Shown here in pieces: positions 1,447 to 2,032 of a stretch of 40,858 bases of DNA. The stretch lies in the UHGV virus genome UHGV-0055581; one strand, 5' to 3'. Under the pieces are notes generated by a model. That model was given only the letters and a program-made list of their open reading frames with translations, was not told the DNA's origin and made no database searches. Positions within the stretch are counted from its first letter, which is position 1; every line of letters starts with the position of its first letter. The DNA is from a virus. Position numbers and translations under genes: made by a program.

Positions 1447-1605
1447 TTGGTGTTCTTTCAGTTCTTCAATTCGAATATTGGTTACGTCTGCATGCGCTAT
1501 CTGCGCCCATATCATCCAGTGGTTATAGCAGTCGTTGATGTCCTCTGCTTCGATAACCCTGTCGAATGGCTCTCCATTCCATTCACCTGTGACTCGGAAG
1601 TGCAT
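1438..1605 (-). CDS. Small hypothetical protein (55 aa)
   Basis: ATG preceded by GGAGATGA RBS-like sequence; translation MHFRVTGEWNGEPFDRVIEAEDINDCYNHWMIWAQIAHADVTNIRIEELKEHQAA; below the ORF-track length cutoff, found by manual translation. Confidence 0.4.
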   Translation of the reverse strand: MHFRVTGEWNGEPFDRVIEAEDINDCYNHWMIWAQIAHADVTNIRIEELKEHQAA

Positions 1606-1723
1606 TTATCATCTCCATAAAACAAAACTCGCCGTAGCGAGTTCAGATAAAAGAAATCCCCGCGAGTTCGAGGATTGTTATTCATTGCCGATATTCACCT
1701 TTATCGCGAACACCTTTACCGGT

Positions 1724-1966
1724 TTATCTCCTTTGCATAGCACGTAATTTTTTCAGATGGTTCTCCTGTTCTGTTTCAGCCAGGATCTGGTGATATTCTC
1801 TGTGATCAATGTGTTCGAATAAATTATTGAATTTTCTGATGCACACTTTTCCAGGATAGCCATCCATCCTCTTGAAGAATACTGAGTGATCAGTACTACG
1901 AATGATTTTTACTGGATAGCCAGCGCTATCGGTGTATATCTGACCACGTTGAATCAGAGAGAACAT
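1724..1966 (-). CDS. Hypothetical protein (80 aa), AT-rich moron-like gene
   Basis: ORF in a locally AT-rich segment with promoter-like AT-rich upstream region; no recognisable family. Confidence 0.5.
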   Translation of the reverse strand: MFSLIQRGQIYTDSAGYPVKIIRSTDHSVFFKRMDGYPGKVCIRKFNNLFEHIDHREYHQILAETEQENHLKKLRAMQRR

Positions 1967-2032
1967 TCGTTTATCCCCAGATAAAAATATAGCAATACCA
2001 ATTACATAAAATACTTCAGGCCAAGCATCATT

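Follow-up and report, generated by a model that had tools for sequence, protein, structure and literature searches.

Is the small AT-rich gene near the left end of the viral genome UHGV-0055581 a moron, transcribed on its own from the resident prophage, or is it one of the accessory genes that the phage's leftward early operon carries and expresses with its neighbours? A first, sequence-only reading of this DNA had favoured independent transcription, describing an 80-codon ORF in a compositionally distinct AT-rich island, preceded by a promoter-like region of its own and followed by a second small ORF and a terminator hairpin just before xis. We followed this up in the whole 40,858-nucleotide stretch (hereafter the window), considering the gene and its family, its place in the operon, its flanking DNA and the function of its product.

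The ORF (ORF80, 1724-1966, minus strand) had been placed correctly and is a real gene as judged by Pfam, PHROG and selection. Its residues 4-54 match positions 2-53 of the 53-position Pfam profile DUF4222 (PF13973) with an E-value of 6e-15 and 55 bits, against a cutoff of 27, and phrog_285 matches it at 3.5e-33. In comparison with the alleles of BP-4795, YYZ-2008, phi467, PhiR5_1, PhiR12_1 and phiP27, pN is 0.12-0.20 and pS 0.7-0.96, with synonymous sites saturated, and because pN is this low against a saturated pS, the sequences point to strong purifying selection acting on the gene. A profile search collected 864 homologues across Enterobacteriaceae (E ≤0.001); close homologues of 80 residues are common in E. 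coli, Shigella and E. albertii, and many genomes carry a RefSeq “DUF4222 domain-containing protein” that differs from ORF80 by 1-2 residues. As these near-identical proteins already bear the annotation, which is present in hundreds of E. coli genomes, the gene is a known one, though uncharacterised. That it might nevertheless be non-functional, a chance ORF or a pseudogene, is suggested by its small size alone and has practically no probability left, being refuted by the pattern of conservation: membership in Pfam and PHROG families, the number of homologues, the strong purifying selection and a confidently predicted fold.

Other searches were less telling. NCBIfam and PADLOC gave zero matches for ORF80 and for its two neighbours, orf55 and the DUF551 gene (see below), and a PDB sequence profile search with ORF80 returned nothing significant. 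An HMM search of 1.84 billion representatives yielded 63 clusters of the ORF80 family, nearly all of them short stand-alone proteins; the few long proteins found bear unrelated domains, and informative domain fusions are absent. One E. coli relative, P0001, carries an internal tandem duplication of 20 residues (YPVKIIRSTDHSVFFKRMDG twice), which brings it to 100 aa. In the window, the DUF551 gene and ORF80 share one reading frame, with a lone TGA (2033-2035) and no start codon between them. The apparent DUF551-DUF4222 fusion P0068 (159 aa, from 12 short contigs) reads this TGA as W, and we rejected it as a probable alternative-genetic-code gene call.

Gene content and relatives mark the window as a lambdoid prophage, complete and of the P22/HK620/CUS-3 type. 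The phages that match it best are IME10, HK633, HK022 and HK620, and it encodes an Arc/antirepressor region as well as a head-binding tailspike of P22 type whose end is endosialidase-like. On the minus strand, the genes follow each other in the order cI-type repressor (8625-9257), N-like antiterminator (7593-8009), RecT-like (5328-6230), Mu-Gam-like (4862-5350), Ea22-like (3296-4114), a 276-aa gene with a C-terminal DUF551 domain (2033-2863; Pfam PF04448, 7.8e-10), ORF80, orf55, xis (1180-1398) and int (129-1202). Given this order from repressor to int, ORF80 is among the last genes of the leftward early operon that the repressor controls, i.e., in the equivalent of lambda's exo-xis region. 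It is co-oriented with, and downstream of, the leftward operon that carries the N-like antiterminator gene, with no insulating terminator found upstream of it, and its setting is that of a gene of the exo-xis/ea kind, with the recombination genes on one side and xis on the other, on the pL strand and past the N-type gene, and with terminators that would need antitermination. The exo-xis region is transcribed from pL and varies from ea22 to xis, and its proteins are small, non-essential and thought to modulate host or phage regulation (PMC4195576, PMC8614690); for the exo-xis genes of lambda and Phi24B, transcription from pL after induction or infection has been demonstrated (PMC4195576). ORF80 encodes the same kind of small protein, and it shares strand and operon with lambda's ea8.5 and the other genes of its exo-xis region (ea22, orf55, orf73 and others).

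The correspondence with ea8.5 extends to the exact slot. Positions 1400-1681 of the window are 96% identical to positions 29080-29361 of lambda, whose next gene is ea8.5; the match ends 13 nt short of the ea8.5 stop codon, and ea8.5 occupies the slot that ORF80 has here. The two products have no sequence relationship, however, and Ea8.5 has a fused homeodomain/zinc-finger fold (PMC4195576), whereas ORF80 is predicted to form a β-barrel and a helix. Other phages match the window up to the ORF80 stop codon and have an ASCH-domain gene next, as in vB_EcoP-683R2, where it overlaps Ea22; the HK022 slot is taken by yet another gene, and the mosaic joint lies exactly at the ORF80 stop codon. A larger mosaic cassette (~1606-2066, minus strand) recurs at 97-100% identity in many E. 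coli prophages in complete genomes, where the genes upstream of it (DUF551, dATP/dGTP pyrophosphohydrolase or Ea22-like), the genes downstream (orf55 or a 114-aa gene) and the integrases all vary; its upstream border is formed by the last ~33 nt of the DUF551 gene (WMPLPEPPQG*).

The position of the DUF4222 gene itself is constant. In the Stx phages, phiP27 and ECOR-derived phages that we read (BP-4795, YYZ-2008, phi467, PhiR5_1, PhiR12_1 and phiP27), the order is always upstream gene, small ORF, DUF4222 gene, an ORF of 44-48 aa, xis and int, and in prophages of Enterobacter and Salmonella, where 38 nt are shared by the DUF4222 gene and the gene upstream, and the former stands two genes before xis, the order DUF4222, small gene, xis and int is likewise conserved. 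Because the slot is filled in every case, be it by ea8.5, the ASCH-domain gene, the HK022 gene or a DUF4222 gene, the inserted extra DNA expected of a moron is missing: on comparison of these genomes, ORF80 is an alternative cargo of a fixed operon slot and does not come on top of genes that would otherwise adjoin. The same synteny, seen in E. coli, Enterobacter and Salmonella with three integrase/excisionase types, could be taken to mean that the gene is an accessory of site-specific recombination, placed two genes upstream of xis-int to control excision or integration. We consider this highly improbable, given that the one studied family member, RgdR, adjoins neither xis nor int in its element Sp7, that lambda, HK022 and 683R2 do without an ORF80 gene, and that the proximity is also explained by the fixed end of the early operon.

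With ORF80 regarded as operon cargo, the features that had suggested a separate transcription unit need another explanation, the first of them being base composition. The region is indeed AT-rich: 1605-2032 has a GC content of 38.8%, with 39.1% for ORF80 and 31.8% for the spacer that precedes it (1967-2032), compared with a window mean of 47.0% (sd 4.0, 428-nt windows) and with 48-52% in the genes flanking ORF80, and it falls within the lowest 4% of equal-sized windows. As an island, however, it is only a moderate one, as 6-10 other stretches are equal to or below it, e.g., 34432-35197 at 33.9%. Moreover, the other alleles of the gene range from 39 to 52% GC; the low value is for this reason peculiar to the allele in the window, not to the gene as such. 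The AT content of the window peaks in two stretches at ~34% GC: 34432-35197, which covers the Arc-like and coiled-coil ORFs of the P22-type immI region, and 39552-40858, which covers the end of the endosialidase-type tailspike gene and the right end of the window. The window's best promoter-like site (TTAACA-17-TATAAT, plus strand) is found at 39524.

The second feature is the proposed promoter, which found no support. A consensus promoter scan of 1967-2032 on the minus strand found zero sites. A weight-matrix scan with sigma-70 consensus frequencies, whose scores are rough, gave as its best candidate a sigma-70-like pair at 2008-2036 (minus strand), formed by GTGAAA (2036-2031), a 17-nt spacer and TATTTT (2013-2008), and a second, weaker candidate with the extended -10 element TGcTATATT (1994-1986, minus strand). 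Sites scoring as high as the former or higher occupy 76 positions in the window; they turn up in 5.5% of all stretches of 95 nt, and dinucleotide shuffling of its own 95 nt gives such a score in 26% of cases. Neither candidate is above chance. Both -10 hexamers are lost in relatives, which have CATTCA and AATAGC at the aligned positions, and in these relatives the spacer is itself a coupled ORF. In the literature on transcription starts of EHEC prophages we found no statement on the ORF80 gene.

This coupled ORF accounts for the spacer. Positions 1967-2032 are a non-coding spacer in the window, as had been read, bounded at 2033 by the stop codon that ends the 276-aa gene upstream, and containing, 7 nt 5′ of the ORF80 ATG, a ribosome-binding site (GGGGA, 1974-1978, minus strand) that is conserved in all relatives. 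When the 5′ flanks of the DUF4222 genes of seven phages were aligned, with BP-4795, YYZ-2008, phi467, PhiR5_1, PhiR12_1 and PhiR49_2 as the relatives, the ~85-bp gap before the gene in the relatives turned out to be a conserved, mostly unannotated ORF of 27-28 codons for a hydrophobic peptide, which in BP-4795 has the sequence MMNWPEAFTAVGVAIAVAFILYSLFRWG and whose pattern is kept in divergent versions such as MSWPDAIVTLGVVFAAAFVVFSICRWG. In BP-4795, this ORF (NC_004813, 2037-2123, minus strand, without RefSeq annotation under the match) starts with an ATG that overlaps the DUF551 stop codon (ATGA) and stops 4 nt before the DUF4222 ATG, inside the ribosome-binding site GGGGATAA; in the relatives, the GGGGA site of the DUF4222 gene also contains the stop codon of the peptide ORF. 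The peptide is probably a membrane peptide and, in the relatives, its translation is probably coupled to that of the DUF551-type and DUF4222 genes on its two sides.

The copy in the window has suffered a 1-nt deletion after ATGATG, which shifts the frame, and a 25-nt deletion, leaving an ORF of 9 codons (2031-2002). We infer that the spacer is a decayed small membrane-peptide gene and not a dedicated promoter, and its AT-richness is largely explained by the T-rich codons of such a peptide. An AT-rich gap before a small phage gene is, in other words, not evidence of a promoter; here it is a dead small ORF. Where it is intact, the membrane peptide coupled to the DUF4222 gene may be a real small protein: a peptide-ORF sequence of the BP-4795 type occurs in 487 of 5426 complete E. 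coli genomes (~9%), and homologues are found in 88 phage records, including 933W and VT2-Sakai, while PHROG gave a weak match only. An Rfam scan of positions 1-9000 (E ≤1) found no known sRNA and returned a single sub-threshold candidate, the eukaryotic snoRNA snoZ30 at 1950-2036 on the minus strand (26.7 bits against a gathering score of 50, E 0.067), which we discarded as a chance match in AT-rich sequence.

On the other side of the gene, both features noted before were borne out. The 55-aa ORF downstream (1438-1605, minus strand) is a homologue of lambda orf55 (phrog_676, 5.4e-39), and the terminator hairpin just before xis, recovered by folding and by a terminator scan, spans 1421-1448 with its T tract (hairpin 1448-1429, minus strand) and holds the orf55 stop codon in its loop. 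Two further hairpins, each followed by a T run, had been missed between ORF80 and orf55. The first (1676-1655, with its U tract 1648-1676, minus strand) has an 8-bp stem and is a homologue of tL4: positions 1676-1648 align base for base with HK022 tL4, as annotated in X51962, with two mismatches in the stem region, although tL4 follows a different upstream gene in HK022. The second (1644-1625, with its U tract 1615-1644, minus strand) lies directly before the ribosome-binding site of orf55 and is kept in HK022 and in E. coli prophages. When the 131-nt spacer RNA is folded to minimum free energy (z = -2.8), both are present. With two terminator-like hairpins between them, ORF80 and orf55 would not form a simple co-transcribed pair without antitermination. 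The terminators that follow ORF80 are, at the same time, part of a conserved backbone, being present in lambda and HK022, two phages without the gene; a literature search for “tL4” brought up nothing usable. The 118-nt spacer between the two genes (1606-1723) is kept in lambda, HK022 and many E. coli prophages whatever the flanking genes, and combines the tandem terminator hairpins, which have the octamer GAACTCGC in common, with a weaker upstream stem; it has no Rfam match.

What the protein might do can be approached through its family. The literature on DUF4222 (PMC10877973, PMC3378721) led us to RgdR (ECs1581), whose sequence we took from the Sakai chromosome and which is the only studied member, encoded on the prophage-like element Sp7/O-island 51 of E. 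coli O157:H7 Sakai (Flockhart et al. 2012, PMC3378721). RgdR is a basic protein of 99 aa that binds DNA non-specifically, raises LEE1 promoter activity and type III secretion, lowers motility and increases Congo-red binding, with phenotypes in uninduced cells; the RGD tripeptide that gave it its name (residues 20-22) affects the activation of type III secretion, which is also weakened by the exchange of K35 for N (PMC3378721). ORF80 resembles it in several respects. Both match the same Pfam model (RgdR with 82 bits, ORF80 with 55), both are small and basic (pI 10.09 and 9.66, respectively) and both are encoded on prophage-type elements, that of ORF80 being lambdoid; the R-G of the RGD tripeptide is kept in ORF80, together with the I-Y that follows and with G, V, R, G and F further on.

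The differences are substantial, however. Identity is ~20% overall and 39% over 31 residues; the RGD tripeptide corresponds to R7-G8-Q9, RGQ being the rule within the 80-aa DUF4222 subfamily, and K35 aligns with I22 (R23 is adjacent), which leaves ORF80 without either feature. At 80 aa, it also lacks the 13-residue N-terminal extension of RgdR, and the C-terminal helices differ. Finally, RgdR is encoded upstream of a primase gene in a P4/PICI-like island (PMC6092414), whereas ORF80 is in a lambdoid early-left operon and adjoins xis. Because the RGD and K35 features are missing and the genomic context is different, ORF80 should not, by these sequence comparisons, be called an RgdR orthologue, and the transfer of function from RgdR is weak, given the ~20% identity, RGQ for RGD and I22 for K35. 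Family membership suggests that ORF80 may be an RgdR-like small factor altering host transcription.

The predicted structure is compatible with such a role. An AlphaFold2 model (pLDDT 83.6), built from a 30-sequence alignment, has five strands forming an SH3-like barrel, a short helix and a long basic C-terminal helix (55-79). Foldseek gave no significant structural neighbour: against the PDB, nothing was found below an E-value of 0.01, the closest entries, at 0.02 or above, being generic barrels (KOW, PWWP, Tudor and the MscS β domain), and against BFVD only generic uncharacterised barrels were returned. The predicted fold and the pI fit a small factor that binds nucleic acids or proteins, and do not identify a mechanism.

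A more specific role, as an early factor of host takeover or anti-silencing that targets a component of the host nucleoid or transcription machinery (e.g., H-NS, Rho or RNA polymerase) during lytic growth, would suit the company of ORF80 among such early-left genes (Orf73/TraR-like proteins acting on RNA polymerase, Gam on RecBCD) and its small barrel-plus-helix predicted fold, which is typical of binders. In addition, the RgdR triad of raised LEE1 activity, lowered motility and increased Congo-red binding resembles, by our own reasoning, what loss of H-NS silencing would produce. Nevertheless, we hold this role for rather improbable: PADLOC is empty, profile comparison with the Rho inhibitor Rof shows no similarity, and significant structural neighbours and informative domain fusions are both absent.

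Taken as a whole, the explanation we favour, with moderate confidence, is that of an early-operon accessory gene with antiterminated expression, a decayed spacer and an RgdR-like product. ORF80 would be one of the accessory genes carried in the pL-type operon of a P22/HK620/CUS-3-like prophage, situated in the variable Ea22-to-xis segment and in the ea8.5 slot. Most of its transcription would follow induction or infection and come from RNA polymerase that, once antiterminated, would read through tL4 into orf55, xis and int, and a transcript that is not antiterminated would stop ~50-75 nt past ORF80. By analogy to RgdR, the protein may be a small DNA-associated co-factor that re-tunes host transcription, and not one of phage replication or assembly. 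Three points speak against this explanation: the GTGAAA-17-TATTTT pair and TGcTATATT in the spacer, which make a weak promoter possible; the movement of the cassette, with spacer and terminators, as a unit, as would also be expected of a self-contained transcription unit; and the weak likeness to RgdR (~20% identity), whose context is P4/PICI-like and not lambdoid.

Cumby et al. (2012, PMC3594210) define a moron as having a promoter and a terminator of its own and a deviant GC content, and as plainly added when compared with related phages. Like morons in the sense of Hendrix and Juhala (e.g., HK97 gene 15), ORF80 is small, accessory and low in GC, with a terminator directly 3′; unlike them, it has no promoter above chance, its terminator is common to phages without the gene, and it adds no DNA between genes that are adjacent elsewhere. 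The moron reading is supported in part: accessory nature, lower GC, a directly following terminator, mobility of the cassette and, in RgdR, a relative that acts on host genes from a resident element speak for it, whereas a promoter of its own is unsupported and the insertion is missing.

A rival view, which we regard as unlikely, makes ORF80 a true moron, in which the decayed spacer would serve as a weak constitutive sigma-70 promoter and, with tL4, give a short autonomous transcript in the repressed prophage, the product being an RgdR-like regulator of lysogenic conversion. It would agree with the AT-rich allele (lowest 4%), the candidate -10 elements, the terminator directly 3′, the conservation of the cassette as a unit across contexts, the phenotypes of RgdR in uninduced cells (PMC3378721) and the definition by own promoter, own terminator and deviant GC (PMC3594210), but the promoter scores are at chance (26% of shuffles) and the consensus scan is empty, the candidate hexamers are unconserved in relatives whose corresponding space is coding and translationally coupled, the terminators belong to the lambda/HK022 backbone, and the position of the gene is fixed across genera. 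For independent expression of ORF80 in lysogens our estimate is similarly low, and is not lower still because the cassette travels whole and weak promoters are frequent in AT-rich DNA. There is, lastly, a slim chance that ORF80 is a moron in the making, which has lost its coupled partner ORF, may reach low-level expression in lysogens through the AT-enriched remnant and tL4, and may encode an antagonist of H-NS-type silencing. If true, antagonism of xenogeneic silencing by a DUF4222 factor would explain why RgdR turns on LEE, suppresses motility and increases Congo-red binding.

On the favoured explanation of an early-operon accessory gene, ORF80 is a routine and largely ordinary DUF4222 gene in that part of the lambdoid early-left operon which is well known to vary, and is of a subfamily that adjoins xis, is widespread and has in RgdR a relative that alters virulence gene expression. 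Elsewhere in the window, a 158-aa ORF (8224-8700, minus strand) between the N-like gene and the repressor gene matches phrog_2651 and has no Pfam match; other lambdoid phages have exclusion genes, of rex or sieB type, at this place, and expression in the lysogen is more to be expected of this ORF than of ORF80.
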